Below, piece after piece: positions 5,194 through 34,741 of a stretch of DNA of 64,000 nucleotides (the stretch's first letter is position 1; the number at the start of each line of letters is the position of its first letter). Origin of the DNA: Bacillota bacterium (GTDB taxonomy: Bacteria > Bacillota_I > Bacilli_A > RF39 > UBA660); the NCBI GenBank assembly GCA_015059435.1, contig SVAJ01000001.1, positions 479,132 to 543,131 on the forward strand, in the 5' to 3' direction. The position numbers were made by a program, and so were the translations under genes. The notes under the pieces are model-generated. The model was not told the origin of the DNA. It saw nothing but the letters and a program-made list of their open reading frames with translations, and searched no databases.

Positions 5194-6289
5194 TTATAGC
5201 TCCTTTTTTAAATTTTCTTCTATAAATAATTCAATATCTCCATCTAGTACTTTTGTAACGTTGCTTGTTTCTGCATTTGTTCTATGATCTTTAACCATAG
5301 AATATGGATGCATAACATAACTTCTTATTTGAGAACCAAACTCTATGTTCATTTGATCTCCTTTTATGTCATTTAATTCCTTCTGTTGTTTTTCTAATTC
5401 TAATAATAACAATTTATTTTTTAATACTTTTAATGCTTGTTCTTTATTTTGAATTTGACTTCTTTCATTTTGACAAGTTACAACTATTTTAGTTGGTAAA
5501 TGGGTAATTCTTACTGCTGAGTCTGTGGTATTTACCCCTTGTCCTCCTGCTCCTGTTGAACGATATACATCTATTTTTAAGTCTTTTTCATCTATTTCTA
5601 TATTGTTGTTTTGTTCTATCTCAGGTGTTATATCTATTGATGCAAATGATGTATGGCGACGATTATTTGAATCAAAAGGAGAAAGTCTAACTAAACGATG
5701 TACTCCTTTTTCATTTTTTAAATAACCATATGCATTAGTACCCTTTACTTCAATAGTTGCACTCTTTATACCTGCTTCTTCTCCTGCTTGATAATCAAGA
5801 ATATTTATTTTGTAGTTGTTTTTTTCACACCATCTTGTATACATTCTATATAACATCATCGCCCAGTCACAAGCTTCTGTTCCACCTGCTCCTGAGTGCA
5901 CTTCTAAAATGCAATTATTTTTATCATATGGTCCACTTAGATATATATTTAAAGATACTTCTTCTAGTGTTTTTTCAATACTAGGTATTTCTTCATTAAT
6001 TATATCTAGCATATCTTTATCTTCTTCTGTTAAAGATGATAATAATTCTAAGTTTGAAGTTATTTTCTTGTCTAAATCAATAACTTCAGAAGTTAGTTTC
6101 TTTAAATCATTCATTTCTGAAATAACTTGTTCACTATTTTCTTTATTATCCCAGAAATTAGGTTTTGACATTTCTTGTTCTAGTTCTTCTATTCTTTTTA
6201 GTTTACTATCAATGTCAAAGTGACCTCCATAGTTCTTTTGTTTTTATATGCATTTCTTCTAAATTTCTTATTAATTCTTTTGTTTCCAT
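5194..6289 (-). CDS. prfB: peptide chain release factor 2, expressed through a programmed +1 ribosomal frameshift
   Basis: The 325-aa ORF carries the RF2 SPF motif (RLSPFDSNNRRHTSF) and the GGQ motif. A 24-codon upstream ORF (ATG at 6289, METKELIRNLEEMHIKTKELWRSL) ends in CTT TGA C, with the SD-like GGAGGT just 5'. Shifting +1 at that site gives a continuous 364-aa RF2. Confidence 0.9.
6214..6220 (-). promoter_or_regulatory. prfB programmed +1 frameshift site CUU UGA C with upstream internal SD GGAGG
   Basis: The minus strand reads tggaggtca CTT TGA C, which is the classic RF2 autoregulatory recoding site. Confidence 0.85.
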
Positions 6290-6478
6290 ATATCCTCTTT
6301 TCTATTTTAATCAATATTTCTAAATTTATACTTATACCGTAACATATTAAGTAAATAATATCAAATTAATTTTTTTGTATATTATTTTAAAATACTGCAT
6401 ATATTATTATTGAGGAAGGTTCACTAGATAATGTGAAGATCCTCTGTATATAGATTAGGAGCCATTAGGCTCCTTTTT

Positions 6479-7837
6479 TTATATTTTTTCAATTATTTCA
6501 TGGGCAGCTTTTTTACCTGCTTCCATAGCAAGTATAACAGTAGCAGCTCCTGTTACTATATCTCCTCCTGCATATACATTTTCTAGAGAAGTTTTTGATT
6601 CTTCTACTACTATTAGACCTCTATCATCTAATTTTATATCACTATATTTTAAAGCTTCATGATTAGGAGAAGTTCCTAAAGCCATTACTACCATATCACA
6701 ATCTACTTTATGAAGTGATTCTTCTTTTTCAGATACACTTCTTCGTCCATCTTCACCAGCTTCTCCTAGTTCCATATCAACGACATTCATACCAATAACA
6801 TTATTATTATCATCAGTTAAAATTTCCACAGGATTTGTTAACAAGTTGAAAATTATCTGTTCTTCTTTAGCATGTTCTACTTCTTCTTTTCTTGCTGGTA
6901 ATTCTTCTTCACTACGTCTATACATTAGATGAGTTTCAATACCTAATCTTTTTAATGATCTAACTGCATCCATGGCAACATTTCCTCCACCAATAACATA
7001 GGCTACTTTAGCTTTTTTGATTGGTGTTTTTGAATCTTCTTTATAAGCATTCATCAAATTAATACGTGTTAATATTTCATTTGCAGAGAACACTCCATTA
7101 GCATCTTCTCCAGGAATATTCATAAATTTTGGAAGCCCTGCTCCTGTACCTAAGAATATGGCATCATATTCTTTTTTTAATTCATCTATTGTAATGGCAT
7201 TACCTACAGGTACATCAGTTTTTATTTCTACTCCAAGTTCTTTTAGTTTATTAACTTCATTTTCAACTATTCTTTTTGGTAATCTAAATTCTGGTATACC
7301 ATATGTTAGTACTCCTCCGGCTTTATGTAGGACTTCATATATCGTTACTTGAAAACCTTCTTTAGCAAGTTCATAAGCGCAACTTAATCCTGATGGTCCA
7401 CTACCTACTACGGCAACTTTTTTACCATTAGATTCTTTTTTACTTACTGAAGTTAAATTATCTTTTATCGCTCTATCTGCAACATAACGTTCTAGAGAAC
7501 CAATGGCAATAGCGTCACTTTTAAATCCTTTAATACACATCTTTTCACATTGTTTTTCTTGTGGACAAACTCTTCCGCATACGGCAGGAAGGGATGAAGA
7601 TAGGGAAATTATCTCATAAGCTTCCTTGATATTATTTTCTTTTATAGCTTTTATAAATTCTGGTATTTGAATATTTACTGGACATCCTTTTACACATCTA
7701 GGATTAGCGCAGTGTAGGCATCTTGAAGCTTCCTTTAATGCTTCTTCATCATTATAACCATAACTTACTTCTTCAAAATTAGTAACTCTAGATTCTGGAG
7801 ATTGGACTCTCATTTTAACCTTTGTATCATTATTCAT
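6479..7837 (-). CDS. nfnB: NADPH-dependent glutamate synthase beta chain-like oxidoreductase (NfnB/GltD/SudA-like)
   Basis: 452 aa. N-terminal Fe-S cysteine clusters (CLHCANPRCVKGCP) and an FAD/NAD Rossmann motif (VAVVGSGPSGLSCA). Paired with a PyrK-like subunit. Confidence 0.7.
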   Translation of the reverse strand: MNNDTKVKMRVQSPESRVTNFEEVSYGYNDEEALKEASRCLHCANPRCVKGCPVNIQIPEFIKAIKENNIKEAYEIISLSSSLPAVCGRVCPQEKQCEKMCIKGFKSDAIAIGSLERYVADRAIKDNLTSVSKKESNGKKVAVVGSGPSGLSCAYELAKEGFQVTIYEVLHKAGGVLTYGIPEFRLPKRIVENEVNKLKELGVEIKTDVPVGNAITIDELKKEYDAIFLGTGAGLPKFMNIPGEDANGVFSANEILTRINLMNAYKEDSKTPIKKAKVAYVIGGGNVAMDAVRSLKRLGIETHLMYRRSEEELPARKEEVEHAKEEQIIFNLLTNPVEILTDDNNNVIGMNVVDMELGEAGEDGRRSVSEKEESLHKVDCDMVVMALGTSPNHEALKYSDIKLDDRGLIVVEESKTSLENVYAGGDIVTGAATVILAMEAGKKAAHEIIEKI

Positions 7838-8663
7838 GGTTAGCCTCCATTTGTTTCATTTTTTCTTGTTCTTCTTCTTTGTAAGTATTTAATCTTTTTA
7901 ATGCTTTTTCAAAATTTACTTTATGGCCATCAAATTCTGGTCCATGGATACATGCAAATTTTGTTTTACCTTCTACTTCACAACGGCAAGCTCCACACAT
8001 ACCACTACCATCTACCATAATAGGGTTCATACTAACTATTGTTTTTAAATTATATTTCTTAGTTAAGTCACAAACATTTTTCATCATTATTACTGGACCT
8101 ATTGCGACGCATATGTCATATTTTTTTATATTTTCTTCAAGTATTGTAGTTACAAAACCTTTAGTACCAAAGCTACCATCATCAGTTGCGTACATTACAT
8201 TTTTTGAAACATCTTCTATTTTATCTTGTATCAATAACAACTCTTTAGATCTAGCTCCATATATTACATCTACATCTATTCCTTTTTCTTTTAAATATTT
8301 AACTTGTGGATAAACGGGAGCTATTCCTACTCCACCTGCTACATAGACTATTTTTTTATTTTTAAACTCATCAATGTTTGCACATATTTCATTTGGATTA
8401 CCAAGAGGTCCTGTTACTGAGAATAGTTCATCATTAGTTTTACTTAATTCCTTTGTAGATGCTCCTACTACTTGATAGATTACTGAAAGTATTCCTTTTT
8501 CTTGATCATAGTCATAAATAGTTAAAGGAATTCTTTCACTATCCTCTTTAGCCATTAATATTACAAATTGTCCTGGCATAGCTTTATTAACTACTAGTGG
8601 TGCTTCTAGCTCCATTTCAAAAGAATTTTCATTTAGTTGTTCATTTTTTAATATCTTATACAT
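7830..8663 (-). CDS. nfnA: ferredoxin-NADP reductase-like small subunit (NfnA/SudB/PyrK-like) with 2Fe-2S site
   Basis: 277 aa. FAD/NAD-binding fold with C-terminal CGACRC...C, and an 8-nt overlap with nfnB. Confidence 0.7.
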   Translation of the reverse strand: MYKILKNEQLNENSFEMELEAPLVVNKAMPGQFVILMAKEDSERIPLTIYDYDQEKGILSVIYQVVGASTKELSKTNDELFSVTGPLGNPNEICANIDEFKNKKIVYVAGGVGIAPVYPQVKYLKEKGIDVDVIYGARSKELLLIQDKIEDVSKNVMYATDDGSFGTKGFVTTILEENIKKYDICVAIGPVIMMKNVCDLTKKYNLKTIVSMNPIMVDGSGMCGACRCEVEGKTKFACIHGPEFDGHKVNFEKALKRLNTYKEEEQEKMKQMEANHE

Positions 8664-8717
8664 ATGATCCCTACCTTCTATATATTATATTATAACATAT
8701 TCATAATATAAAAAAAT

Positions 8718-8746
8718 AAAATATTCTAAACAATTTAGAATATTTT
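8718..8746 (-). terminator. intrinsic terminator: 13-bp perfect inverted repeat AAAATATTCTAAA-caa-TTTAGAATATTTT, T-run on the minus strand
   Basis: Perfect palindrome read directly from the sequence, downstream of gene 8802..9422. Confidence 0.6.
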
Positions 8747-8801
8747 ATATATGTTTTATTCTTTTTAATGAATTGTATGTACATTTTTTGTGATTAAAAG
8801 C

Positions 8802-9422
8802 CTATATTTTTATGTTATCTATAGTAGGTAATTCCTTAGATTCAATTAATTTTTGTCTTTGTTTTATTACTAAGTCTTTTACCTTTTTAACATTTTCTAT
8901 TGAAACTAGATTTACAAATGAAAGATTAGTTTTATCTGGGTTAATCATATTTTTACCAATTGTCTTTATCCCTTCATTCTCATTTAAATACTCTACTGAA
9001 AGAATTAAGTCTCCATACTTTTTCTTTACATTTTCAGTTTCAACAATACTATAATTAACTAAGTATCCATACCAAACTTCTTTTTTTCTACCTTTATAAA
9101 CTATAACTCTTTTATCTGTTATACAATATTCATCTTTTTTAACTTTTATATTCATTAAAAATAACTTACTTATAATACTATAGGCACCTAAGACACCAAA
9201 TAGCGCTACCGCTAAAAAGATTACTATAAATCCTAGGCTAGTACCACTTTCTCCATCGCCTATTCCATGAGTCACACAAAATATCATTATTGTCTGAACT
9301 ACTAGAGCAAATACTACCAAGAATATTTCACCTGATATATCTTTACTTCTATTTTCAGGATTTGGTTTACCAGTCCATATTATTTTTTCATTATCTCTTA
9401 AACATTCATTAAAATTATACAT
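8802..9422 (-). CDS. membrane protein with two TM segments and a bPH_2/YdbT-like PH domain
   Basis: 206 aa. Two hydrophobic helices followed by the motif CITDKRVIVYKG, typical of bacterial PH domains. Confidence 0.4.
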   Translation of the reverse strand: MYNFNECLRDNEKIIWTGKPNPENRSKDISGEIFLVVFALVVQTIMIFCVTHGIGDGESGTSLGFIVIFLAVALFGVLGAYSIISKLFLMNIKVKKDEYCITDKRVIVYKGRKKEVWYGYLVNYSIVETENVKKKYGDLILSVEYLNENEGIKTIGKNMINPDKTNLSFVNLVSIENVKKVKDLVIKQRQKLIESKELPTIDNIKI

Positions 9423-9443
9423 AATTAATTCTCCTCTTTTTAT

Positions 9444-9466
9444 TTATCCACATAATTTGTGGAAAT
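9444..9466. repeat. inverted DnaA-box-like palindrome TTATCCACA-taatt-TGTGGAAAT, directly upstream of the RBS of gene 8802..9422
   Basis: TTATCCACA is a perfect DnaA-box consensus. Its partner half sits inverted 5 nt away. Confidence 0.5.
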
Positions 9467-9496
9467 TTATTCACTATCTTTGATTAAATATTTCTA

Positions 9497-10339
9497 TTAT
9501 ATTAATATATCAACTATTATTCCTAGTATAATTCCTGTGAAATAAATAATTGATGTGATCATAATATTTTCTTTCATGTTTTTGTTTGTTTTAAATAATA
9601 ATAAGATACCTAAACCGCTTCCAGTAAGTAGGCCAGCAAGCATCATACCAACACTTATCATATTTGATAAATATAACTCTGTTATTATAACACTACCTGC
9701 ACAATTAGGAATTAGTCCTACTAGGCTTGCTAAAAAGTAAGTAAAAATGTTCTTATGTAATAGTAAGTTAGAAACATTTTCTTCTCCTATTTTAAATATT
9801 ATTATATTTATTAATACGTTTGCAATTAAGATAAATAGAGTTATATTTAGAGTATGTATAATACTTGAAGTAATTATATTATGTTTATTACAACTACAAT
9901 GATCATGTTCACATACATCATGTATTTGTGATTCTGTAATCTTTTGATTTTTTCTAAATATTAAATCAATTGTGAAACCAACTATTATACCAGCAATTAT
10001 TTTAAAAATAATAATTCTAAGTAGAATTGTTATATCTACTCTTTCGCTTAGCATAATTGGTAGCATTTCATCACTAGTAGATAAAAACACTGCAATTAGA
10101 GTACCCATTGTTATTACTCTTGCTGAAAATAAGTTTGAAGCCATAGAACTAAATCCACATTGTGGTAAAGCTCCTAATAATCCACCTACGATAGGTCCAT
10201 ATTTTTGATTTTCTGAAAGAGCTTTTTGATTTTTCTTAGTCAGTTTATGTTCTATAAATTCTAAAACTATAAACGTAATTAATAAATATGGTATTAGTTT
10301 AATTGTATCTATTAAAGCATCTTGTAAACAATCTAACAT
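9497..10339 (-). CDS. polytopic membrane permease with His/Cys-rich loop (possibly DUF318/ArsP-like metal(loid) transporter)
   Basis: 280 aa, multi-TM, with the loop HDVCEHDHCSCNKHN. It lies 31 nt downstream of the Fur-family gene. Confidence 0.35.
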   Translation of the reverse strand: MLDCLQDALIDTIKLIPYLLITFIVLEFIEHKLTKKNQKALSENQKYGPIVGGLLGALPQCGFSSMASNLFSARVITMGTLIAVFLSTSDEMLPIMLSERVDITILLRIIIFKIIAGIIVGFTIDLIFRKNQKITESQIHDVCEHDHCSCNKHNIITSSIIHTLNITLFILIANVLINIIIFKIGEENVSNLLLHKNIFTYFLASLVGLIPNCAGSVIITELYLSNMISVGMMLAGLLTGSGLGILLLFKTNKNMKENIMITSIIYFTGIILGIIVDILI

Positions 10340-10370
10340 ACTATCACCTTCATTCGATTATTTAATTTAT

Positions 10371-10775
10371 TCACTGTTGTCCTCCTTTTATACATTTTTG
10401 ACATAATCCATTAATAATTACACGTTCTTTATTAGGCTTAAAACTGTGTTCATTAAAAATATGATTAAATAATTCACTAATACAATCACAATCAACATGG
10501 TCTAAGTTTCCACACAACTCACATTTTAAATAGAAATGATTTGTTTTATCACATTCTTTTAAATATTCATAATAAGTTATATTATCCTTAGCTATATATT
10601 TATTTAGCCTGTTAGATTCAACTAATTTATCGATAAAACGATAAATTGTAGTTAAACCAACTTCAGAATTTAGCTCATTATAAATATCTTTTACTGTGAA
10701 TGCTTTTTTTTGATTCTTAATTATATTTAATATTAAATCTTTTTGTTTAGTATTGTATGATTCTAATCTATTCAT
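10371..10775 (-). CDS. Fur-family metalloregulator (Zur/PerR/Fur-like)
   Basis: 134 aa. N-terminal winged-helix region and two CxxC pairs (CELC, CQKC) forming the structural Zn site typical of Fur-family proteins. Confidence 0.75.
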   Translation of the reverse strand: MNRLESYNTKQKDLILNIIKNQKKAFTVKDIYNELNSEVGLTTIYRFIDKLVESNRLNKYIAKDNITYYEYLKECDKTNHFYLKCELCGNLDHVDCDCISELFNHIFNEHSFKPNKERVIINGLCQKCIKGGQQ

Positions 10776-10790
10776 ATTAACCCTCTAAAT

Positions 10791-10805
10791 TGAAAATGAT
10801 TTTCA
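10791..10805. promoter_or_regulatory. Fur-box-like 7-1-7 palindrome TGAAAAT-G-ATTTTCA in the promoter of the Fur-family gene
   Basis: Perfect inverted repeat 16 to 30 nt upstream of the ATG. It has the same architecture as Fur/PerR/Zur boxes (TGATAATnATTATCA). Confidence 0.5.
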
Positions 10806-10841
10806 TATTCGATTATATATCCTTTTTTATATAATTGCAAG

Positions 10842-10870
10842 AAAAAAAGATTATTTATCCAATAATCTTT
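10842..10870 (-). terminator. intrinsic terminator after the DUF1810 gene (AAAGATTAT-ttatcca-ATAATCTTT plus T-run)
   Basis: 9-bp perfect stem flanked by an A-run and T-run. Confidence 0.6.
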
Positions 10871-10880
10871 CTTAGTACTT

Positions 10881-11312
10881 TTATCTGACTCTATAATATC
10901 TATTTTCAAGTAAATCTAATGTCTTCTTATCTTCTTCTCCATCATAAAACTTATCAAGTATTTGCTTAAAAATCTTAGTATCTGGATCTACATAATTAAA
11001 TAATGTCATTGAAGATTGTAGTTTTAAATTATCAGGGTATTTTAAAATATTAGATATTTTTCCATCTTTTTTATATAACTCTTCCGATATTTCAATTAGA
11101 TGTTTTTTTAAATATTCATTCTCTAAATACGCCTGTGCTTCTTCTATTCCATCTATACCGAAAAACTCAGTAAATCCACTCATACCTAGTCCTTTTAATT
11201 GTGGAAATATATACCACATCCAATGTGAACGTTTTTTACCTTTTTTTATTTCTTCTAAAGCAATAGGGTATGCTTGTTCTTGTGCATTAATAAATCTTTC
11301 TAAATTATACAT
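10881..11312 (-). CDS. DUF1810-family protein
   Basis: 143 aa. The N-terminus LERFINAQEQAYPIALEEIKKGKKRSHWMWYIFPQLKGLGMS matches the DUF1810 signature. Confidence 0.6.
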   Translation of the reverse strand: MYNLERFINAQEQAYPIALEEIKKGKKRSHWMWYIFPQLKGLGMSGFTEFFGIDGIEEAQAYLENEYLKKHLIEISEELYKKDGKISNILKYPDNLKLQSSMTLFNYVDPDTKIFKQILDKFYDGEEDKKTLDLLENRYYRVR

Positions 11313-11439
11313 AGCTCTTATTCCTATCTAAATAATTATTTATATAAATTATATCATAGTTTTTTATTTCATTTCTATTATATAGACTTTTTTACAAATG
11401 TACCTTTACATATATTTATATAATTAATCTATTCTTTTG

Positions 11440-12108
11440 TTAAATTTTCACAGGTGGTTTATTTTCGGGAATTTGTGAATATGTACTTTCTAAAAGCTTT
11501 TCTCGGCTCATTTTTGTATAATATACATTTCTTGTATTTCTACCATCTTTATTAAACATATTTATAAAGTTTTCTTTTTGCTCCCTACTCATATCATCAT
11601 TTTCATTATTTAAATCTATTTCAGTCACTTTATCAAATCCTAGAATTTCGTGAACAGCAGTAATATTTTTATTAAAAAATATTGGTGAAACAGCAAATAA
11701 TGTTTGAATAGTAATATCTTCTAAACATATGCTTTGAAGTTTTGATAGAAAATCTTCTAATTGTTCTTTATAAAAATCATAAAAGGCTTCATCACCTAAT
11801 TTATTCTTTAACGGCCTTAAATTCTTTGGTATAAGATGCATATGTAATGTGTTTCCAGTTCTCCCATAACTAAACATTTGATTAACAGGTGTAAATTTGG
11901 TAGATGAGTTTTCTTGTTCTGTTTGTTCTTTAATTTTATTTTTTATAAATTGCTCTATATTTTGTTCTGTTATATTTAATTTCTTTAATGTTAATTTTAA
12001 ATCTTCTTCGTTCATTTTTTCAATAGATACTAATATGTGATTAATAGCAGATTCATTATTTGAGGTTTTTATATTCATCAGTATTCTTTTTATATTTTCT
12101 TTTAACAT
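11440..12108 (-). CDS. hypothetical cytoplasmic protein (orphan)
   Basis: 222 aa with no recognisable domain. It has its own promoter and lies downstream of direct-repeat unit U1. Confidence 0.4.
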   Translation of the reverse strand: MLKENIKRILMNIKTSNNESAINHILVSIEKMNEEDLKLTLKKLNITEQNIEQFIKNKIKEQTEQENSSTKFTPVNQMFSYGRTGNTLHMHLIPKNLRPLKNKLGDEAFYDFYKEQLEDFLSKLQSICLEDITIQTLFAVSPIFFNKNITAVHEILGFDKVTEIDLNNENDDMSREQKENFINMFNKDGRNTRNVYYTKMSREKLLESTYSQIPENKPPVKI

Positions 12109-12153
12109 ATCAATTCACCTTATATTTATTATATCATACTTTCTTAAAGCACA

Positions 12154-12180
12154 AAAAAAGATCTTTGTTGGTCTTTTTCA
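12154..12180 (-). terminator. intrinsic terminator hairpin (AAAGATC/GGTCTTT) with flanking A/T runs
   Basis: Read directly from the sequence. It immediately follows direct-repeat unit U1. Confidence 0.5.
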
Positions 12181-12182
12181 AG

Positions 12183-12202
12183 GTGTCTAAAAGGTATTTA
12201 AT
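12183..12202. repeat. tandem direct repeat U1: GTGTCTAAA-ag-GTATTTAAT (11-bp period)
   Basis: A degenerate copy of the GTATCTAAA x2 motif, 5 nt after the stop codon of gene 12208..12855. Confidence 0.55.
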
Positions 12203-12207
12203 AATAA

Positions 12208-12855
12208 CTATTTTAAAGATTCTATAAAATTATTTATTTCTTCATTGCTATTAAAATGGAAAGCATAACCTTTCTGATTATATCCGACTAGTAATATATC
12301 ATCACCGTTTGCATAATTTAGTGAAAATACACTTTGACTATATACTTGACTTTGATCATTACTATTAACACTTATGTAATATGTAATTGATTTTGGAGGG
12401 CATCCAAACCAAGAATAAGTTATATCCTTATCAATGTATTTTGCTGTTTTTAATTTACTAATAATAGTATCAATTGTATTGTTTGATACCTCGGTATTTT
12501 TTTGTTCTGTCTCGGGTGGTTTATTTGTATTTGTGGTTTTAATTTCACATCTACTTACAAATGTTGTTATACCATCTTTTTGGACCGACGAGTGTAATAA
12601 GCTAGATAACTCCTCGAAATCAAAATCAGGATTTATACTATTATCTGTTGGTTTATTTTCTTCTATTGTTTCTGTATTTTTATCATTATTATCTTCTTTT
12701 AGTTTATTGTTTTCTGCTTGTTTATCAGCGTTGTTATTGCTTATATGTTTGTCATAACAAATGTATCCACTTAATGCTACTGCTAATGTCAATAAAATTA
12801 CAGCTGCAATAACTAGCCTTTTGTTTTCTTTGTTATTTTCTTCCATCTTCATCAA
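12208..12855 (-). CDS. hypothetical membrane-anchored protein (N-terminal TM, Asn/Lys-rich linker, extracytoplasmic domain)
   Basis: 215 aa. TM segment LVIAAVILLTLAVALSGYI, with no recognisable domain. Confidence 0.4.
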   Translation of the reverse strand: MMKMEENNKENKRLVIAAVILLTLAVALSGYICYDKHISNNNADKQAENNKLKEDNNDKNTETIEENKPTDNSINPDFDFEELSSLLHSSVQKDGITTFVSRCEIKTTNTNKPPETEQKNTEVSNNTIDTIISKLKTAKYIDKDITYSWFGCPPKSITYYISVNSNDQSQVYSQSVFSLNYANGDDILLVGYNQKGYAFHFNSNEEINNFIESLK

Positions 12856-12888
12856 CCCTTTCTTTTATATTTTAATTATAACATTTTT

Positions 12889-12922
12889 TTGATAGAAAAA
12901 AAGACCTTTAACGGTCCTTTTC
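12889..12922 (-). terminator. intrinsic terminator (AAAGGACC-gttaaa-GGTCTTTTTTT on the minus strand)
   Basis: Stem with one G-U pair plus a 7-U run. Its T-run overlaps the extended -10 promoter (TGTTATAAT) of gene 12208..12855. Confidence 0.55.
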
Positions 12923-12925
12923 AAT

Positions 12926-12945
12926 GTATCTAAAGGGTATCTAAT
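12926..12945. repeat. tandem direct repeat U2: GTATCTAAA-gg-GTATCTAAT
   Basis: Lies between the stop codon of gene 13020..13826 and a terminator hairpin. Confidence 0.6.
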
Positions 12946-13019
12946 TTATTCAGAAAGTAGCTGGATTTCTCCAACTTTACCTCATCGTAATATCAAAATA
13001 TTCCGATCATTTAAAATAT

Positions 13020-13826
13020 CTATACCCTAGGTTTTATTAATGGATATTTCCTTTTTATATAACCTTTTGTATTACTTATTTTATCTTCTTGGATTTTTAA
13101 TTGTTGTTTTTTTTCTTCTCTTATCTCTTGTCTGAAATCGTATCTAGATGTTAAGTACCAGTCTTCAAAGTCCCAAAATTTAGCGGTACTATACATTTTC
13201 ATAAATGCATAAACTCTCATGTGAGCAGGTAGTGAGAAAAGTTTTTTCTTAGTACTATTACTAAGATTATCTTTCATTAATAAAACATAGTCATCAAATG
13301 ATTTCTTAAATTCTTCAATTACTTCTCCTGAACATCTTTCTATAAATGTATTAAATAATTTTTCTTGATATTCATGATTATCTTGTTTAGTTTCTGTAAA
13401 GCTTTCATTTTTTAGTTCTTCCAATTTAGAATCGATTGTATCAAAATTATAGAATTGTTTAAGTAGTTTATCAGAATCATCAACATGATGATCCCATTTC
13501 CAATCCCATTCACAATTTTCAATTGTTTCATATAATTCAGTTTGAAATTCTTTTTTTCCTTTATTATCCAAACTCTGATAAAATTCTTTAAGTTTGTTAA
13601 TCTGGATAGTTTTAATAGACATTAATTTAAGAATGCTAAACCATCTTCTATAATCGTTTCTTAAATCTATATTCAAAAATTGATACTCTTTGTTAGTTTC
13701 TATTAATTCATTAATATAATCGATTCTTTCCTCCAATGATATGTTATTAAAGCTTTCTATATATTCATTAATAATTCTATCTTTATATTCTTCAATTCTT
13801 TTTCTTAATTCTTCTTTACTTCCCAT
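13020..13826 (-). CDS. hypothetical cytoplasmic protein (orphan, helical, Glu/Lys-rich)
   Basis: 268 aa. No TM segment and no recognisable motif. Confidence 0.4.
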   Translation of the reverse strand: MGSKEELRKRIEEYKDRIINEYIESFNNISLEERIDYINELIETNKEYQFLNIDLRNDYRRWFSILKLMSIKTIQINKLKEFYQSLDNKGKKEFQTELYETIENCEWDWKWDHHVDDSDKLLKQFYNFDTIDSKLEELKNESFTETKQDNHEYQEKLFNTFIERCSGEVIEEFKKSFDDYVLLMKDNLSNSTKKKLFSLPAHMRVYAFMKMYSTAKFWDFEDWYLTSRYDFRQEIREEKKQQLKIQEDKISNTKGYIKRKYPLIKPRV

Positions 13827-13902
13827 ATTAGTTCTCCTGTTGGTTAATTATTATAGACTTTTATCATAAAAAAAGCAATAGTTCATAATATTATTTATTT
13901 TA

Positions 13903-13940
13903 CGAAAAAAAGGACTATTCAATTTTAAAATAGTCTTTTA
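13903..13940 (-). terminator. intrinsic terminator (AAGACTATT-ttaaaattg-AATAGTCC plus T7 on the minus strand)
   Basis: Read directly from the sequence. Confidence 0.55.
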
Positions 13941-13955
13941 AATTCAAATTTCAGG

Positions 13956-13975
13956 GTATCTAAAACGTATCTAAA
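13956..13975. repeat. tandem direct repeat U3: GTATCTAAA-ac-GTATCTAAA (perfect), abutting the stop codon of the methyltransferase gene
   Basis: Two identical 9-mers at 11-bp period, with 0 nt between the motif and the TAA. Confidence 0.65.
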
Positions 13976-14611
13976 TTATTTCGTTTTTCTAGCCTTAATT
14001 AGACTATAATCATCTTTATCAACATTGCTCGAAGTTATTTCTTGAAAGCCAACCCTTTTTAATACTTCTATTTCATGTTCAACAGTAAGTGGTGTATCTA
14101 TATGTCTATGATTTTCTATATTGTTTTCTAGTTCATATAATTGGCCATCTTCTATTTCTTGTGATAAAGCTATTTTGTCACAATTTATGAACTGGCCATT
14201 TTCTTTTAAACAATCATATACCTTTTTATATAGTTTGATTTTTTCTTCTAGTTTGAAATGATGAAGAGCTGATGTAGATATAACTGCATCATAATTATCT
14301 CCAAATTCTACTTCAAAGAAATCACCACATATAGTAGTTACATAATCTGCAAAACTTCTTTTATTTAATTCTTCAAGCATATTTTCGGTAATATCTATGA
14401 CTGTTACCTCAGCACTTGGGAATAATTCAAATACATGAATTAATTCTAGTCCTGTCCCTGCACCCAAGTCTAATATTTTTTTAGTTTCTTTATCTAGGCT
14501 ATCTCCTAATGTCTTTTTGGTTTCCATGTATGTACTATGGACATCATCATAAGAATCTATCTTTTCATTAAAGAATGTTCTTTGCTTTTGATTTCTTTCA
14601 TATAAATTCAT
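13976..14611 (-). CDS. class I SAM-dependent methyltransferase
   Basis: 211 aa. Motif I ILDLGAGTGLE with acidic loop VIDITE. Its start overlaps the TetR gene by 4 nt. Confidence 0.7.
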   Translation of the reverse strand: MNLYERNQKQRTFFNEKIDSYDDVHSTYMETKKTLGDSLDKETKKILDLGAGTGLELIHVFELFPSAEVTVIDITENMLEELNKRSFADYVTTICGDFFEVEFGDNYDAVISTSALHHFKLEEKIKLYKKVYDCLKENGQFINCDKIALSQEIEDGQLYELENNIENHRHIDTPLTVEHEIEVLKRVGFQEITSSNVDKDDYSLIKARKTK

Positions 14612-14613
14612 AA

Positions 14614-15177
14614 TTATATCCCCCTTAAATTAATTTCTATGTTATTTCTGATTAAATCTTTGATTTCTTTATCAGTTAATTTAATACTATTTACACATAA
14701 CTGTGTTGCAATACCATGAGTATAAAATCTTACTTCACGATATACCTTTTTTGCATCTTCTAAAGATATTTTATATTGTTTTACCATTGCATTAATAGTT
14801 TCCATGTTTCTATCAGTATTTAATACTTCGCTTACTGTTCTAGAACCAGCAAGATCTGCCATAAATAATGAAAAGAATACATTTGGTTCTTTTTTTGCAT
14901 AAAAAGCATATGCATAACTTATTGTATATAAATAATCTTTTATATCTATATACTTACGAATAAATGATGAGTAATCTTTCCTTAAATAGAATTTAAGATC
15001 TTCTTTATACATATCAAAGTTTTCATAGTTTTTAAATATTGGCTGTGTTGAACATCCTATATATTTAGCAAGTTCTCTAACTGTTAGATTAGAGTAACCT
15101 TTTTCCTTTATAAATTCAACACTCTTTTCCAATATATCTTCTTTAGAAAACTTAATAGTTCTCGCCATAAACATCAC
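14614..15177 (-). CDS. TetR/AcrR-family transcriptional regulator
   Basis: 187 aa. N-terminal HTH (GYSNLTVRELAKYIGCSTQPIFKNYENFD). Confidence 0.75.
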   Translation of the reverse strand: MMFMARTIKFSKEDILEKSVEFIKEKGYSNLTVRELAKYIGCSTQPIFKNYENFDMYKEDLKFYLRKDYSSFIRKYIDIKDYLYTISYAYAFYAKKEPNVFFSLFMADLAGSRTVSEVLNTDRNMETINAMVKQYKISLEDAKKVYREVRFYTHGIATQLCVNSIKLTDKEIKDLIRNNIEINLRGI

Positions 15178-15191
15178 CTCACATATGTATA

Positions 15192-15209
15192 AAATAACAT
15201 TTGTTATTT
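15192..15209. promoter_or_regulatory. TetR operator candidate O1: AAATAACA-tt-TGTTATTT, overlapping the predicted TSS/-10 (TATATT at 15218..15213)
   Basis: 8-bp perfect inverted repeat. A -35 TTGACA sits at 15241..15236 with a 17-bp spacer. Confidence 0.5.
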
Positions 15210-15246
15210 AATAATATACACTACTTAATAAAATTTGTCAATATAA

Positions 15247-15266
15247 AAAATAACATTTGTTATTTT
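15247..15266. promoter_or_regulatory. TetR operator candidate O2: AAAATAACA-tt-TGTTATTTT, just upstream of the -35
   Basis: A second copy of the same palindrome, centred 58 bp from O1. Confidence 0.5.
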
Positions 15267-15303
15267 ATTTTTAATGATTTAATATGTTTTTTAAGAAAAA
15301 AAC

Positions 15304-15323
15304 GTATCTAAAACGTATCTAAA
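15304..15323. repeat. tandem direct repeat U4: GTATCTAAA-ac-GTATCTAAA (perfect), 81 nt after the secA stop and flanked by A/T runs
   Basis: Identical to U3. It lies upstream of the TetR/methyltransferase operon promoter. Confidence 0.65.
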
Positions 15324-15404
15324 GTGCTTTTTTTGATAAAAATCACTTAAAATGTGGAACAAAGAAAAATCTCGCAATCCCTTTATTTATAAGGGAAAAC
15401 GAGA

Positions 15405-17897
15405 TTATTTACCACAACATTGTTTATATTTTTTGCCACTGCCACATGGACATGGATCATTTCTACCTACTTTTTTTACTCTTTTAGGTTTCTTTTTTGC
15501 AGGTTCACTTTCTGTATCATTAGTTATTTTCTTTTTTGATACTTCTTTTCTTTCAATATTTTGTCTTATTTCTGCTTTTAGTAAGAATACTGATACATCT
15601 TGATCTATTTTTTGTAACATAGCATCAAACATATCGAATCCTTCCATTGTGTATGCTCTTAGTGGATCTTCTTGAGCATATCCTCTTAAGTGAATTCCTT
15701 CTCTTAAATGAGACATTGTATTGATATGTTCCATCCAGTAATTATCTATTACTTGTAGAGTAATTGCTTTTTCAAATTCATTTGTAACTTCTACTGGAAT
15801 TTCTTTTATTTTTTCTTCATATTCAGCTGTTACTAATTTGACTAATTTATCTATTACTTCTTCTGGAGATAACTGGGAAATCTGTTGTTTTTTAATATCA
15901 TTTCTAAGTAAGTTTTCATTAACAAATTCTACTATTTCATTAAAATCTCCATCTGTTAGATATCCTTCTGGAGCTAAATGGGAATTTACTACATCTTCTA
16001 GATGATGTCTAAATGTTGAGATAATCATTTCATGAATTGAATCATTATCTAAGATTTTGTTTCTCTTATCATACATTATTTCTCTTTGATTATTCATTAC
16101 ATCATCGTATTGTAGTAAACTTTTTCTTATATCAAAGTTATTTCCTTCAACTCTTTTTTGTGCAGTTCCAATTGATCTTGTGAATGTTTTTGATTGAATA
16201 GCTTGATCCCCTAGACCCATAGTCTTCATCATTTCACCAATTCTATCTGATCCGAATCTTACCATTAGATCATCTTTCATTGATACGAAGAATTGAGTAT
16301 ATCCAGGATCTCCTTGACGTCCAGAACGTCCACGTAATTGGTTATCAATACGACGTGATTCATGGCGTTCAGTACCAACTACACATAATCCACCTAAATC
16401 TCTTATTTCATCTGATAGTTTAATATCTGTACCACGTCCTGCCATATTAGTTGCGATAGTTACTGATTTTTTTGTACCTATTTTAGAGATTATTTCGGCT
16501 TCACGAGCATGATTTTTTGCATTTAATACTTCATGTGGAATATGAGCTTGTTTCAATAATCCACTTATAAGTTCACTTGTTTCAATAGCTATTGTACCAA
16601 TTAGTACTGGTTGACCTTTTTCGTAACATTCTTTAACAAATTCTATTATTGCTTTATATTTTGCTTCTTTTGTTGCATATACTAAATCTGGTGCATCAAT
16701 ACGAGCAATAGGTCTATTTGTAGGTATTTCTATAACATACATGTTATAAATGTTTCTAAACTCTTCTTCTTCTGTTTTAGCAGTACCTGTCATACCAGAT
16801 AATTTCTTATACATTCTAAATAAATTTTGGAATGTAATAGTAGCTAAAGTTTTAGTTTCTTCATTAATAGTAACTCCTTCTTTAGCTTCTAGAGCTTGAT
16901 GAAGTCCATCTGAGAAAGCTCTTCCTTTCATTAAACGTCCAGTAAATTGATCTACTATTACTACTTCATCATCTTGTACTACATAATCAACATCATTTTT
17001 CATTGAATAATTTGCACGTAGTGCTTGATTTATAAAGTGTACTAATGTTGCGTTATTTATATCATATAAGTTATCTATTTTAAAGAATCTTTCTGCTTTA
17101 TCACTACCATCTTCTGTTAGTGTAACGCTCTTGTTTTTTTCATCATATACATAGTCATCTTCATTTTTTAACCCTTTAACAAATCTATCGGCATCTAAAT
17201 ATAAATTTGCACTATGCATTTCTCCACCTGAAATAATTAATGGAGTTCTTGCTTCATCTATTAATACAGAGTCAACTTCATCGATAATAGCAAAGTTTAG
17301 AGGTCTTTGTACTCTATCTTCACTTCTTATAACCATGTTATCTCTTAAATAGTCAAATCCAATTTCATTATTTGTAGAATATAAAATATCACAATTATAT
17401 GCATCTTGTTTTTCTTTAGCAGTTAATTCTCTTCCATTTACTCCTACTGTTAGTCCTAAAAATCTATAGATTTCTCCCATCCACTGTGCATCACGATTAG
17501 CTAGATATTCATTAACTGTAATTACATGAACACCTTTTCCTGTTAATGCATTTAAATAACCTGGTAAAACACAAGTTAAAGTTTTTCCTTCACCTGTTTT
17601 CATTTCAGCTATATTACCATAATGAATAGCAAGACCACCAAGTATTTGAACATAGAAATGCTTTTCTCCAATTACACGAAAAGCAGCTTCTCTAGCAGTA
17701 GCAAATGCTTCTACTAGTATATCTTCTAATGTTTCTCCTTTTAATAATCTTTCTTTAAATTCATCAGTTTTATCCTGTAATTCTGTATCTGTTAATTTAG
17801 AGTATTCTTCATCTAAAGCCATTACTTCGTCTGCAATACGTCTAAATTTTTTTAACTCTTTATATTCATGATCTAATAATCTCTTTATTATATTCAT
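15405..17897 (-). CDS. secA: preprotein translocase ATPase SecA
   Basis: 830 aa. Walker A MKTGEGKT and a C-terminal zinc finger CPCGSGKKYKQCCGK. Confidence 0.95.
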   Translation of the reverse strand: MNIIKRLLDHEYKELKKFRRIADEVMALDEEYSKLTDTELQDKTDEFKERLLKGETLEDILVEAFATAREAAFRVIGEKHFYVQILGGLAIHYGNIAEMKTGEGKTLTCVLPGYLNALTGKGVHVITVNEYLANRDAQWMGEIYRFLGLTVGVNGRELTAKEKQDAYNCDILYSTNNEIGFDYLRDNMVIRSEDRVQRPLNFAIIDEVDSVLIDEARTPLIISGGEMHSANLYLDADRFVKGLKNEDDYVYDEKNKSVTLTEDGSDKAERFFKIDNLYDINNATLVHFINQALRANYSMKNDVDYVVQDDEVVIVDQFTGRLMKGRAFSDGLHQALEAKEGVTINEETKTLATITFQNLFRMYKKLSGMTGTAKTEEEEFRNIYNMYVIEIPTNRPIARIDAPDLVYATKEAKYKAIIEFVKECYEKGQPVLIGTIAIETSELISGLLKQAHIPHEVLNAKNHAREAEIISKIGTKKSVTIATNMAGRGTDIKLSDEIRDLGGLCVVGTERHESRRIDNQLRGRSGRQGDPGYTQFFVSMKDDLMVRFGSDRIGEMMKTMGLGDQAIQSKTFTRSIGTAQKRVEGNNFDIRKSLLQYDDVMNNQREIMYDKRNKILDNDSIHEMIISTFRHHLEDVVNSHLAPEGYLTDGDFNEIVEFVNENLLRNDIKKQQISQLSPEEVIDKLVKLVTAEYEEKIKEIPVEVTNEFEKAITLQVIDNYWMEHINTMSHLREGIHLRGYAQEDPLRAYTMEGFDMFDAMLQKIDQDVSVFLLKAEIRQNIERKEVSKKKITNDTESEPAKKKPKRVKKVGRNDPCPCGSGKKYKQCCGK

Positions 17898-19007: not shown

Positions 19008-19601
19008 ATGAAAAAGAGGTTTATAAATAGTTGTATCTCTTTAATAACAAAATATGGCAATTACTCAAAACGGGATATACAAAAATTAGAATATGGTTTA
19101 GAAGGTATTTATCTTACTTTTACTAAAATGGTAGTTATATTTGCATTAGCTTTTATACTAGGAATATTTAAAGAAGTAATTATAGTTTTAATACTTTTTA
19201 ATGCTATTAGATATACCGGATTCGGATTTCATGCAGAAAAAAGTTATCAATGCTTAATTATTTCTATAGTAAACTTTATTCTTATACCTTGGATATTTTT
19301 AAATATTAAATTATCAAATATTATGAGCCTTTCTATAGCAATATTTTGTATTATCAACTACTTGATATTTGCACCAGCTGATACTATAAAAAGACCATTA
19401 CCAAATAGGAAAAAGAGAATTATTAGAAAAGTAATAACTGTTCTTATAGGAATTATATATACTTTCTTAATAATAATTCTTAATAATAAGTATTATACTT
19501 CATTAGTTATATCGAGCATGATAATATTAATGATTGTTATTAATCCATTAACTTACATGATATTTAAACAACCTTATAATAACTATAAAAAACTATCATA
19601 G
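19008..19601 (+). CDS. agrB: AgrB-family membrane peptidase, processing enzyme for the cyclic peptide autoinducer
   Basis: 197 aa from the second ATG, which has the RBS AAGGTGA. Multi-TM, with catalytic-spacing His and Cys in GFGFHAEKSYQC. The table ORF begins 33 nt earlier at a weaker start. Confidence 0.7.
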   Translation: MKKRFINSCISLITKYGNYSKRDIQKLEYGLEGIYLTFTKMVVIFALAFILGIFKEVIIVLILFNAIRYTGFGFHAEKSYQCLIISIVNFILIPWIFLNIKLSNIMSLSIAIFCIINYLIFAPADTIKRPLPNRKKRIIRKVITVLIGIIYTFLIIILNNKYYTSLVISSMIILMIVINPLTYMIFKQPYNNYKKLS

Positions 19602-19649
19602 GCATAAATACTTTTGTATTTAGCAAATATATGTAAAGGAGGTAAATGT

Positions 19650-19769
19650 ATGAAAAGATTCGCTGGATTACTTGCTGCTGTTGCTATGCTTGCTACTGGT
19701 GCTGCTTCTATGGGATGTATCTGGTATTTTATTGATGAACCAGAAGCAAACGGATTATTTAGAGACTAA
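19650..19769 (+). CDS. agrD: AgrD-like autoinducing peptide precursor, 39 aa, not in the ORF track
   Basis: RBS AAAGGAGGT is 6 nt upstream of the ATG. Product: MKRFAGLLAAVAMLATGAASMGCIWYFIDEPEANGLFRD. It has an amphipathic leader, a Cys-containing core CIWYF and an acidic tail IDEPEA, which is the AgrD architecture. Confidence 0.65.
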   Translation: MKRFAGLLAAVAMLATGAASMGCIWYFIDEPEANGLFRD

Positions 19770-19797
19770 AAAAACTAGGTATTATCCTAGTTTTTTT
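19768..19797. terminator. bidirectional terminator AAAAAAACTAGG-tattat-CCTAGTTTTTTT between agrD and the convergent kinase gene
   Basis: Perfect palindrome with an A-run and a T-run. It overlaps the last codons of the kinase ORF. Confidence 0.6.
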
Positions 19798-21077
19798 ATA
19801 CTTAATTTTTGAATATAATATGCATCTATCACTTCCTGTGATGCCTCTATCCAACTGTTTTTTGAAAGGAGTTTTTTTGCAAAATGTAGTCCATTTCCTC
19901 TGTCCTGGCCTTTTGTTGATACTCCTTTTTCATTTCTATTGTCAAATTTTTTATCTTTTTTGAAAGTATTTGATATAACTATATTTGCCTTATCTTTTAA
20001 GTCATATACTTCTACTAAAACATTTCTCTTTCTTGTTTCAGACGCTCCCTCTATTGCATTATCAAAATAGATTCCTACTAATTTACATAGTATATTCATC
20101 TGTTTCTCAGATAATTTATTGATGTTTGACTTTTTACTTATACTAACATCAAAAGTTAGTAACACCTGATTTTTTTGAGCTATTATAGTTTTGTAGTACA
20201 TAAGGCCCTTAAGTCCTCCCTTAGGAAGATCTTTTAGTTCTTGTATAACTTCTCCTTCTAAGTTTATATTATCCTCTAATATTTCATCAATTTTGCCTTT
20301 CACTTTTTTATCATTCGTTAAGCATCTAAGGACAGCTAATTGATTCTTATATTCATGTCTATTAAGTTGTTCTTTTTCAATCCATTCTTCAAAATTTTGG
20401 ATGTAACTAAATAGATTATCATATTCGTGACTTAATTTATTATAATTATTACTATTAATTAAAAAAATAACTGTTATAACAATTAGAAATATAGTTATCG
20501 AAACATTAGTTATATATTGCATATTCCAATTATAGTTTGCTGCTAGATTATATGCTAAATAACTTGTTTCTATTGTAAATAAAACTACAAATACTGTACT
20601 CAGTACTGATTTATTATTTATAATTCCATAATAGAAGTTTGATAACTGTTTTTTGATATAATTTCTGTTAATGATAAAGATTACGAATGCTGCAATTAAA
20701 ATATTTGCTAATAGATATAATAAATTATTTTCTTTTATCTCTATAGCACTAACAAAATTAACTAAAACTAATGATAAGATTAGTTCTGATAAAAATGTAA
20801 AGAACATTAGTATTCCTGTTGATATTACTGACTGTTCAAATCTTAATCTAAAAATTCCCTTATACCCAATAGCGTTAATGATAAATACTATAACTGTATA
20901 CATGGTAGTATAATGCGTTGTATTTATTATTACAGTAACTAATGACATGATGATTACTATTAAACTTGTTTTTGCACTTAAGACAGTTTTTTCTATGTTC
21001 AGCACTTTTTTTATAAAATATAGTCCTGTATATGTCATAATAATAGAGCATAAAAATTTAACAAATACCTCTAACAA
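19782..21077 (-). CDS. AgrC-like sensor histidine kinase (polytopic sensor plus GHKL ATPase)
   Basis: 431 aa. About 6 N-terminal TM helices and a C-terminal HATPase G-box GQDRGNGL. Confidence 0.7.
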   Translation of the reverse strand: MLEVFVKFLCSIIMTYTGLYFIKKVLNIEKTVLSAKTSLIVIIMSLVTVIINTTHYTTMYTVIVFIINAIGYKGIFRLRFEQSVISTGILMFFTFLSELILSLVLVNFVSAIEIKENNLLYLLANILIAAFVIFIINRNYIKKQLSNFYYGIINNKSVLSTVFVVLFTIETSYLAYNLAANYNWNMQYITNVSITIFLIVITVIFLINSNNYNKLSHEYDNLFSYIQNFEEWIEKEQLNRHEYKNQLAVLRCLTNDKKVKGKIDEILEDNINLEGEVIQELKDLPKGGLKGLMYYKTIIAQKNQVLLTFDVSISKKSNINKLSEKQMNILCKLVGIYFDNAIEGASETRKRNVLVEVYDLKDKANIVISNTFKKDKKFDNRNEKGVSTKGQDRGNGLHFAKKLLSKNSWIEASQEVIDAYYIQKLSIKKLG

Positions 21078-25758: not shown

Positions 25759-25829
25759 ACTATCTCTCCTTCCGCCATGACTTGTTAAGTCATAGTAATA
25801 AATGCGTTATTAGTATAACAATTATTTTA

Positions 25830-34265: not shown

Positions 34266-34266
34266 A

Positions 34267-34632
34267 TTAATTCTCCTTTACTTTTATACTATATACAAAT
34301 TCTTGGTTTTCTACTGAGAATTTTATTTTTATATTATGATCATTTATTTCTAATTTAATAGTTTTTAATTTAACATAAAGAGTTTTATTTAAATCCTTAA
34401 CTGTTATTATTCCTTCAGTTTCTTTATTAGTATCAAATCTATATTCCATATCTAATGAACTATTACTTCGTCGTAATATATTCTCATCATATAAATACTC
34501 TACTTTTGTTTTCTCTTCTGTTGGTTCAAAATAAGTTAAGATATTTTTCTCTTTATTTAAGTTACCTATTAATTCGTATTTTGATTTTTCTTCTTGACTA
34601 GAAAGATCAATTTTTAACTTTAATTTAGGCAT
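34267..34632 (-). CDS. DUF1934 protein (YwiB-like)
   Basis: 121 aa. Immediately upstream of argS, as ywiB-argS is in Bacillus. Confidence 0.55.
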   Translation of the reverse strand: MPKLKLKIDLSSQEEKSKYELIGNLNKEKNILTYFEPTEEKTKVEYLYDENILRRSNSSLDMEYRFDTNKETEGIITVKDLNKTLYVKLKTIKLEINDHNIKIKFSVENQEFVYSIKVKEN

Positions 34633-34741
34633 ATAAACACCTCTTTTTAAATTTACAGTTTAGATTATAACATATGTTTGTAAATTTTGATACATATTTT
34701 TACTTTAATTTTAAATAATAGTAAGGAAAGGTGGGTTTTAT

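Follow-up and report, generated by a model that had tools for sequence, protein, structure and literature searches.

The DNA studied here is a 64-kb window from a Bacillota bacterium of the RF39 lineage (assembly GCA_015059435.1, contig SVAJ01000001.1, positions 479,132 to 543,131), and its subject is the region that follows the secA gene, where a short direct repeat accompanies three consecutive orphan genes, orf268, orf215 and orf222. The window has a G+C content of about 26%, and the genes between 8 and 18 kb lie exclusively on the minus strand, in the order hpf, secA (15405-17897), a TetR-family regulator gene, an S-adenosylmethionine (SAM) methyltransferase gene, orf268, orf215, orf222 and the genes for DUF1810, Fur and ArsP_2 proteins. 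The original prediction, made from the window alone, had described the three orphans as independently transcribed units with identical punctuation, resembling modular cassettes. All three open reading frames (ORFs) are indeed present on the minus strand, with orf215 starting either from the TTG codon at 12855 or from an internal ATG a few codons away (the JGI gene call comprises 212 amino acids). Together with the preceding gene pair, they are located as follows:

13976..15177, minus strand: cassette 1, a TetR-family regulator (14614-15177) and a class I SAM methyltransferase (13976-14611), both assigned with Pfam
13020..13826, minus strand: orf268, an all-alpha protein with 10 helices and without an assignable fold
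12208..12855, minus strand: orf215, an N-terminal membrane anchor followed by an extracytoplasmic domain
11440..12108, minus strand: orf222, a helical N-terminal domain followed by a putative GNAT-like alpha/beta domain

A Logan assembly and the contig Ga0214519_100038 of JGI contain the same DNA, and an exact look-up of the window's methyltransferase returned four contigs, all with the layout of the window and none with a variant context.

On the gene strand, the repeat reads TTAGATAC-N3-TTAGATAC and thus consists of two units with an 11-bp period, a form that is referred to as DR19 in the following. Within 3.1 kb, it occurs in three exact copies and one degenerate copy, with no further copies in the rest of the 64-kb window; exact matches were absent from each of 100 shuffled sequences.

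15304..15322, minus strand: DR19 copy 1 (TTAGATACGTTTTAGATAC), exact; 82 nt past the secA stop codon, the P′-arm repeat of an intact attL-like junction (see below)
13956..13974, minus strand: DR19 copy 2, exact; at the junction between the methyltransferase gene and orf268, interpreted below as collapsed
12926..12944, minus strand: DR19 copy 3 (TTAGATACCCTTTAGATAC), exact; upstream of orf215
12183..12201, minus strand: DR19 copy 4 (TTAAATACCTTTTAGACAC), degenerate; at the junction between orf215 and orf222, likewise interpreted as collapsed

Each copy is accompanied by a hairpin and a promoter:

15365..15404, minus strand: secA terminator, a hairpin with a T-run (fold -16.7 kcal/mol, z -5.4), which travels with the TetR-methyltransferase (TetR-MT) cassette
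15193..15264, minus strand: TetR promoter region, with TTGACA at 15236-15241 and TATATT at 15213-15218, between two AATAACAAATGTTATT palindromes
13905..13939, minus strand: hairpin with a T-run at the 5′ end of the orf268 unit (fold -8.3 kcal/mol, z -1.9)
13850..13878, minus strand: orf268 promoter, TTGCTT-17-TATAAT, by direct sequence reading
12896..12921, minus strand: terminator of the orf215 unit (fold -11.5 kcal/mol, z -4.3)
12875..12883, minus strand: extended -10 element of orf215, TGTTATAAT, by direct sequence reading
12153..12178, minus strand: decayed, weak hairpin of the orf222 unit (fold -4.3 kcal/mol, z -0.4)
12128..12136, minus strand: extended -10 element of orf222, TGATATAAT, by direct sequence reading

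The proposed identity of the punctuation therefore holds insofar as the repeats lie beside hairpins and extended -10 promoters, and the upstream modules of orf215 and orf222 share 70% identity across 84 nt. The order of the elements differs, however: at the secA/TetR junction it is terminator, repeat, promoter, whereas at the three other junctions a hairpin with a T-run sits between the repeat and the promoter. Nor is every gene bracketed, since the junction that follows orf222 (11313-11439) lacks a repeat, leaving this gene bracketed on one side only, by a fourth repeat that has decayed together with its terminator. Generic promoter and terminator scans showed no enrichment and are uninformative in DNA with 26% G+C, and an Rfam search of the window and related loci gave no match at the junctions. 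As judged from the comparisons described below, the terminator and promoter behind the repeat form part of the 5′ end of the downstream cassette. The hairpin after each inner repeat is a 5′ insulator of the downstream unit that now also ends the upstream transcript.

We scanned one genome per species for exact copies of the repeat and obtained at least 120 loci (designated by L numbers). Among the matches listed, about 77 loci with 24-30% G+C from gut and rumen metagenome-assembled genomes (MAGs) hold 183 copies; their labels are Bacilli, Erysipelotrichaceae, Tenericutes, Acholeplasmatales and Clostridium sp. CAG:710/914. Matches from high-GC genomes and other phyla were considered as members of the same system and left out, as they represent unrelated 11-bp iterons beside integrases, Rep-like genes or a cupin-like gene. 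In Actinobacteria with 67-70% G+C, among them Mycobacterium arosiense, the TTAGATAC unit is present three times with an 11-bp period just upstream of a gene start (L020 5447-5476, L024 1181-1210, L111 1014-1043), the gene being a conserved ORF of ~341 amino acids in L020 and L024. These triplets seem to be an AT-rich operator-like repeat unrelated to the sites behind secA.

In the low-GC relatives, the repeat takes two forms, DR19 and a variant with a 12-bp period (DR20), each composed of two TTAGATAC units. They recur in co-oriented arrays with the layout DR19, promoter, one to three genes, DR20, ~130 nt, CCATGTGGCAGTGGTAAAAAATATAAACAATGTTGTGGTAAATAA, terminator and ~50 nt, followed by the next DR19 and further genes. 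CCATGTGGCAGTGGTAAAAAATATAAACAATGTTGTGGTAAATAA is a 45-nt element that codes for PCGSGKKYKQCCGK*, the end of SecA, without a start codon and with a stop codon just upstream. It corresponds to the SEC-C zinc-finger tail of SecA, and the window contains it only once, in the copy attached to secA itself:

15405..15449, minus strand: core of the attachment (att) site, the last 45 nt of secA (PCGSGKKYKQCCGK*), at which homology with the other copies of the TetR-MT cassette begins

This core lies inside 22 of the 26 units between DR20 and DR19 in relatives, and a DR19 is found 55-89 nt past the stop codon in 22 of 32 genuine secA ends, a range that includes the window. The layout is as expected from repeated site-specific integration at the 3′ end of secA. 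The sequence pattern indicates that DR19 and DR20 mark the two arms of an att site of ~250 bp, with DR19 as the putative P′ arm and DR20 as the putative P arm. In these terms, the secA-proximal junction is an attL, composed of core and P′ arm, and in each internal unit the core is flanked by a P arm on one side and a P′ arm on the other. Many P arms, including those at prophage attR, additionally contain three to four RAGTGC repeats about 10-12 bp apart directly past DR20 (L009 9678-9740; L172 12122-12230; L180, minus strand, near 100-185), which are candidate sites for an excisionase or a host factor.

The units delimited in this way are small. Complete cassettes, reaching from DR19 to DR20 (n=47), measure 0.38-3.5 kb, with a median of ~1.2 kb, and contain one ORF in 27 cases, two in 13 and three in 4; 63 of 65 cassette ORFs have the orientation of secA. 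In one cassette present in three genomes, sequence similarity starts within the left core and stops within the right core, so that the cassette boundaries lie inside the core. The 559 proteins of the array loci fall into 414 families, and cassette families common to several species have differing neighbours on both sides. Among 70 cassette ORFs, we found GNAT acetyltransferases (5), Peptidase_S51 (3) and NUDIX proteins (3), along with MmeI-type and other restriction-modification (R-M) genes, methyltransferases, helix-turn-helix proteins and many proteins without a family. Cassettes in relatives, such as those in L046, L096, L125 and L009, lack an integrase and have kept both attL and attR. A complete array with four cores also exists away from secA, between an unrelated gene and gidA (L012 13017-18560, identical to L087); its first core is free-standing and its last is degenerate, an arrangement that hints at relocation of the array or at use of a secondary site.

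The same site bounds complete prophages. Two IMG/VR proviruses of 35-40 kb, 3300028833_003330 (L140 and L172) and 3300029134_000104 (L158 and L180), carry it in full, in the order secA-core, DR19, a tyrosine integrase gene on the opposite strand, a CI/S24 repressor gene, replication, structural, lysis and R-M genes, DR20, ~110 nt and a second core. Their integrases and that of L115 form a family (A; 38-59% identity) whose members always adjoin TTAGATAC repeats, including L115, in whose 8-kb locus the SEC-C core was undetected. A second family (B), 22-28% identical to the first, adjoins TGTTTGCAA, TGTTTGTAA or TTGTCCAC repeats, again with an 11-bp period, at the same secA-end core and in elements inside the same arrays (L132 4470-4870; L052 5200-5450; L075 5590-6150; L104 6440-7060; L086 2520-2940). 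The arm repeat thus co-varies with the integrase family and not with the target core, which is our main argument for reading the repeat as an arm-type integrase site. The N-terminal domain of the integrase is predicted to bind it; matches to Arm-DNA-bind_4 are marginal, with L132 just over the Pfam gathering score and L086, L115 and L158 under it.

Within the window, the TetR-MT pair provides the clearest link to these arrays. Copies in other genomes were found by a search with the window's 29-mer spanning the secA stop codon and terminator, and their proteins are 92-97% (TetR) and 79-96% (methyltransferase) identical to those of the window. In genomes whose secA reaches only 64-79% identity, the cassette is 92-97% identical. 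In the MAG SIG197, for instance, the values are 64% for secA, 96% for TetR and 94% for the methyltransferase. Elsewhere, the cassette follows other cassettes or a different secA gene, and its position in the array differs. As judged from this comparison, it has spread horizontally. Similarity between the copies begins at CCATGTGG of the core, and the secA terminator recurs in near-identical form in L108, L220, L221 and L226, detached there from a window-type secA. Because the similarity starts inside the core, the cassette must have brought with it the final stretch of secA in the window, the terminator behind it and DR19 copy 1. The palindrome AATAACAAATGTTATT, found at 15193-15208 and 15249-15264, is present in every copy of the cassette and probably represents the cassette's own TetR operator. 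The P′-arm repeat consists of two 11-bp units in both the window and L108 and of a single unit in three other copies (L220 6622-6900, L221 827-1105, L226 775-1060), so that the number of units varies.

The remaining junctions of the window have a different make-up. Only the secA-proximal junction is intact (core at 15405-15449, DR19 at 15304-15322). In L118, L220 and L225, an intact DR20 and core stand behind the same methyltransferase gene, whereas the window's junction between this gene and orf268 (J2) is chimeric at the repeat: its left flank matches the end of the methyltransferase gene and DR20 of L118, and its right flank matches the 5′ modules of other cassettes, consisting of DR19, 'cctgaaa' and a terminator (L081, L023, L096, L100). 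Similarly, at the junction between orf215 and orf222 (J4), positions 1-52 match the end of the orf215 homologue and DR20 of L009, while positions 27-119 match DR19 and the terminator of L129, L105 and L046. From the repeat onward, the flank of DR19 copy 3 matches the 5′ region of the L009 cassette with the orf215 homologue and cassettes in L129, L064, L046 and L105. The simplest reading of these chimeras is that the junctions collapsed by deletion between the repeats.

These observations can be combined into a model. An incoming circle would recombine inside the core at the secA end. It would contribute a replacement secA end with terminator and P′ arm, behind which would come the circle's own terminator, promoter and cargo. 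Each new unit would push the older ones downstream, producing the succession secA-core, DR19, cargo, DR20, core, DR19, cargo and so forth, with phage tyrosine integrases presumably moving the cassettes in trans. At all three inner junctions of the window, a deletion from DR20 to DR19 would then have removed P arm, core and P′ arm. The residue of such a collapse would be a single repeat followed by the terminator and promoter of the next unit, that is, the punctuation that had first appeared identical. Since the cores are gone from the inner junctions and no integrase gene is present in the 64-kb window, the units of orf268, orf215 and orf222 are probably immobilised.

As originally proposed, none of the three cargo proteins has a recognised domain: searches of Pfam, NCBIfam, PHROGs and PADLOC assigned no family, and profile searches against the PDB found no sequence relative. 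The suggested architecture of orf215, with an N-terminal membrane anchor and an extracytoplasmic domain, was likewise borne out. Its family comprises 65 clusters at E<1e-10 among 1.84 billion representatives, none of them annotated, and Pfam searches with longer relatives produced nothing useful. Of the three proteins, only orf222 shows a resemblance in its predicted fold, in that its alpha/beta domain may be GNAT-like; an acetyl-CoA pyrophosphate-binding motif (Q/R-x-x-G-x-G/A) has no clear match when the sequence is read by eye. Homologue clusters number 19 for orf268, 59 for orf215 and 65 for orf222. The homologues of the three genes did not co-occur in other genomes, each being found alone and in differing contexts: those of orf268 adjoin ALGX/MBOAT genes, a two-component system or scpAB, in each case without the repeat; an orf215 homologue has a Peptidase_S51 gene upstream; and those of orf222 lie downstream of secA or of a beta-lactamase-like gene. 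The L009 homologue of orf215 forms a complete cassette, with DR19, gene, DR20 and core. In L003 (1-2120), an orf268 homologue lies between direct repeats of ~140-170 nt that contain a tRNA-3′-end-like sequence, beside a genuine tRNA 3′ end, an arrangement that looks like a second cassette array anchored at a tRNA gene. We conclude that orf268, orf215 and orf222 are unrelated, independent cargo genes with their own promoters rather than parts of one machine.

Collectively, we consider it highly probable that the region past secA is a stack of small, integrase-less cassettes accreted at the secA end and that the repeat is an arm element of a phage-type integrase. The notion of modular cassettes is thus borne out in the sense of evolution and mobility, the repeat being part of the att site of prophages and of dozens of cassettes, and not in a regulatory sense. 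Several points weigh against this interpretation. The deletion between DR20 and DR19 is deduced from the chimeric junctions, and the inner junctions are coreless, so that the cassette status of orf268 and orf222 depends on their 5′ modules of DR19 and terminator and on analogy. Complete secA cassettes with either gene were not found among the retrieved genomes; the orf268 homologues retrieved are located elsewhere than in secA arrays, with no copy of the repeat, and no repeat flanks those of orf222 in L008 and L012. Furthermore, the motif alone is not diagnostic, because the 8-mer with an 11-bp period also occurs in the unrelated iterons of other phyla. Nearly all comparison sequences are metagenome assemblies, in which repeats are prone to misassembly, and the counts for the relatives' arrays are drawn from loci among the matches listed, which number at least 120.

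Among the alternatives, the one to be taken most seriously, albeit unlikely, is that the array is a prophage graveyard, in which each cassette is the last piece of a decayed secA prophage, such as a moron near attR, and was never independently mobile. Full prophages use attL and attR sites that are exactly alike, accretion with subsequent decay is an accepted origin of tandem elements (PMC5704250), some cassettes lack DR20 or are fused with a neighbour (L108), and the junctions of the window have themselves decayed. Yet random decay would not be expected to leave a promoter tens of nucleotides past an intact P′ arm in dozens of units or to yield 63 co-oriented ORFs out of 65, and the genes nearest to attR face the opposite way in the two prophages. 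In addition, both arms and both cores are kept around units of only 0.4-3.5 kb, and the TetR-MT unit has the same ends in distant genomes, at differing positions. Considerably less probable is a role of the repeat as an operator that co-regulates the units, for instance through a winged-helix response regulator recognizing direct repeats with an 11-bp spacing. An 11-bp period and a location upstream of promoters with a weak -35 and an extended -10 element are typical of activator sites, some copies in L012 lie ~26-40 nt upstream of TGNTATAAT, and an agr two-component locus is situated nearby. However, the distance from the repeat to the -10 element varies between 46 and 99 nt in the window, and at three junctions a terminator intervenes between repeat and promoter. 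In relatives, moreover, the repeat is also found 3′ of genes, in its 12-bp-period form DR20, and flanks whole prophages, with its type co-varying with the integrase family. The TetR unit is equipped with palindromic operators of its own, and in L225, where the repeat is absent, its promoter is nevertheless conserved. The earlier idea of a site for a shared regulator is not supported. Two specific candidates were rejected: an agr/LytTR operator, given that the agr promoters have no copies of the repeat and in view of the att evidence, and the TetR protein as the repeat-binding factor, given its own operators.

Even less credible is the possibility that the three genes form a single toxin, defence or secretion-related system, with a membrane-anchored component between two cytoplasmic ones. 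They are adjacent, co-oriented and functionally uncharacterised, but each has its own promoter and terminator, PADLOC and PHROGs matched none of them, and their homologues never co-occur, with neighbours that differ gene by gene. A functional unit of three genes is not supported by the comparison across genomes, in which each gene was found without the other two. We attach the least probability to a genome-wide intergenic repeat, akin to repetitive extragenic palindromes (REP) or miniature inverted-repeat transposable elements (MITE), that is clustered here by chance. Although the repeat is short, intergenic and associated with hairpins, four copies within 3.1 kb compare with none in the other 61 kb, all but a few inverted pairs among the relatives' copies are linked to secA-end cores and arrays, and terminal inverted repeats and target duplications are absent. 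The original prediction had also named an observation that would speak against it, namely housekeeping genes in conserved synteny; no such synteny was found in the secA region of relatives, which is hypervariable, and the DNA after secA is wholly different between the relatives compared.

Several features of the surroundings complete the picture. The firmicute gene order hpf-secA-prfB is broken up, and in L001 (8423-18633; corresponding to 6000-15404 of the window) prfB, identified from its peptide chain release factor domains, begins ~9.2 kb past the secA stop codon. Homologues of Fur and ArsP_2 border the distal end of the arrays in L031 and L112. Given these two observations, the genes past orf222 may be older insertions or the original flank. 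On the other side, just upstream of cspA-hpf-secA, lies an agr-type quorum-sensing locus (~19008-21801) that encodes AgrB, an AgrD-like ORF of 39 amino acids, a HATPase_c_5 kinase and a LytTR regulator, and L009 shows the same agr-cspA-hpf-secA neighbourhood. The sole Rfam match above the gathering score in the window is an L31-Firmicutes ribosomal protein leader (25766-25795, minus strand). The sign of the GC skew flips only at 34001-38000 (+0.07 and +0.27, compared with about -0.2 elsewhere), pointing to an inserted segment or to a run of plus-strand genes.

Our analysis replaces an unexplained motif and three orphan genes with a testable mobile-genetic mechanism and reveals that, in a clade of gut and rumen Bacilli that has received little study, integration is focused on the 3′ end of secA. 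The defined att site, with a core and two arm repeats, could be used for the automatic detection of cassettes and their phage helpers. For annotation, the three orphans are better treated as independent, horizontally acquired cargo than as an operon or system. It is tempting to go further and propose that this clade of uncultured low-GC Bacilli possesses an integron-like capture platform assembled from phage components, in which promoter-bearing single-gene cassettes between complete lambda-type att sites are excised and re-inserted in trans by the integrases of resident or incoming secA prophages, stack up behind an essential gene and move between genera, a proposal that we regard as tentative and rate slightly below an even chance. 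If the cassettes were indeed mobile in trans, they would constitute a functional analogue of integrons on the firmicute side, with phages seeding and reshuffling accessory genes.

Arm-binding tyrosine integrases such as lambda Int and Tn916 Int act on att sites of the lambda type, and several properties of the site at secA fit this family: a length of ~250 bp, a short core inside the target with tandem direct arm repeats on both sides, an integrase gene beside one arm whose product gives marginal Arm-DNA-bind_4 matches at its N terminus, and the replacement of the target gene's 3′ end by an element-borne copy. It differs in its target, the coding 3′ end of secA, and in that most bounded units lack an integrase and hold only one to three genes. 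Our literature search found no report that secA serves as an att site. Integration of the lambda type with arm sites and the accretion of integrase-less elements are already known, whereas the use of the coding end of secA as a target, the phage origin of the att sites, the tiny, co-oriented and promoter-bearing units and their movement between distant hosts appear to be new.

Site-specific accretion has been described for the tandems of the ICESt1/ICESt3 type, in which cis-mobilizable elements (CIMEs) have lost their integration genes and kept attL and attR (Guedon et al., 2017; PMC5704250). The relatives' cassettes share this lack of integration genes and the retention of both sites. Unlike CIMEs, which have the att sites of conjugative elements, they use phage-type sites, and they are much smaller (median ~1.2 kb), share one orientation and bring their own promoters, with several per array; the inner units of the window fall outside the definition of a CIME because both of their junctions have lost the core. 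The tycheposon islands at tRNA genes of Prochlorococcus (bioRxiv 10.1101/2020.12.28.424599) likewise arise by repeated integration at one site, and here, too, older elements are pushed inward, the hypervariable island holds scattered partial copies of the target, and the cargo is mostly unknown or niche-related. In contrast to the cassettes behind the protein-coding gene secA, tycheposons target tRNA genes, belong to a different host clade with a different integrase family and, as described, contain their own integrase and replication modules, of which the cassettes have none.

Like phage morons, the cassettes are self-contained units of promoter, gene and terminator tied to temperate phages; unlike morons, which reside inside phage genomes, they stand alone between complete att sites. 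With chromosomal integrons, they share a single fixed site of insertion, co-oriented cassettes of one to three genes that are each bounded by a recombination site, an integrase that is presumably encoded elsewhere, and a diverse, mostly orphan cargo that includes GNAT and R-M genes. The array at secA differs in being anchored on that gene, with no adjacent intI/attI/Pc platform (no IntI-specific model was run), in having bipartite sites of ~250 bp with direct arm repeats instead of folded attC hairpins, and in that the cassettes have promoters of their own. The outcome thus resembles an integron-like array built without integron components, of which the copy in the window is a partly fossilised example.

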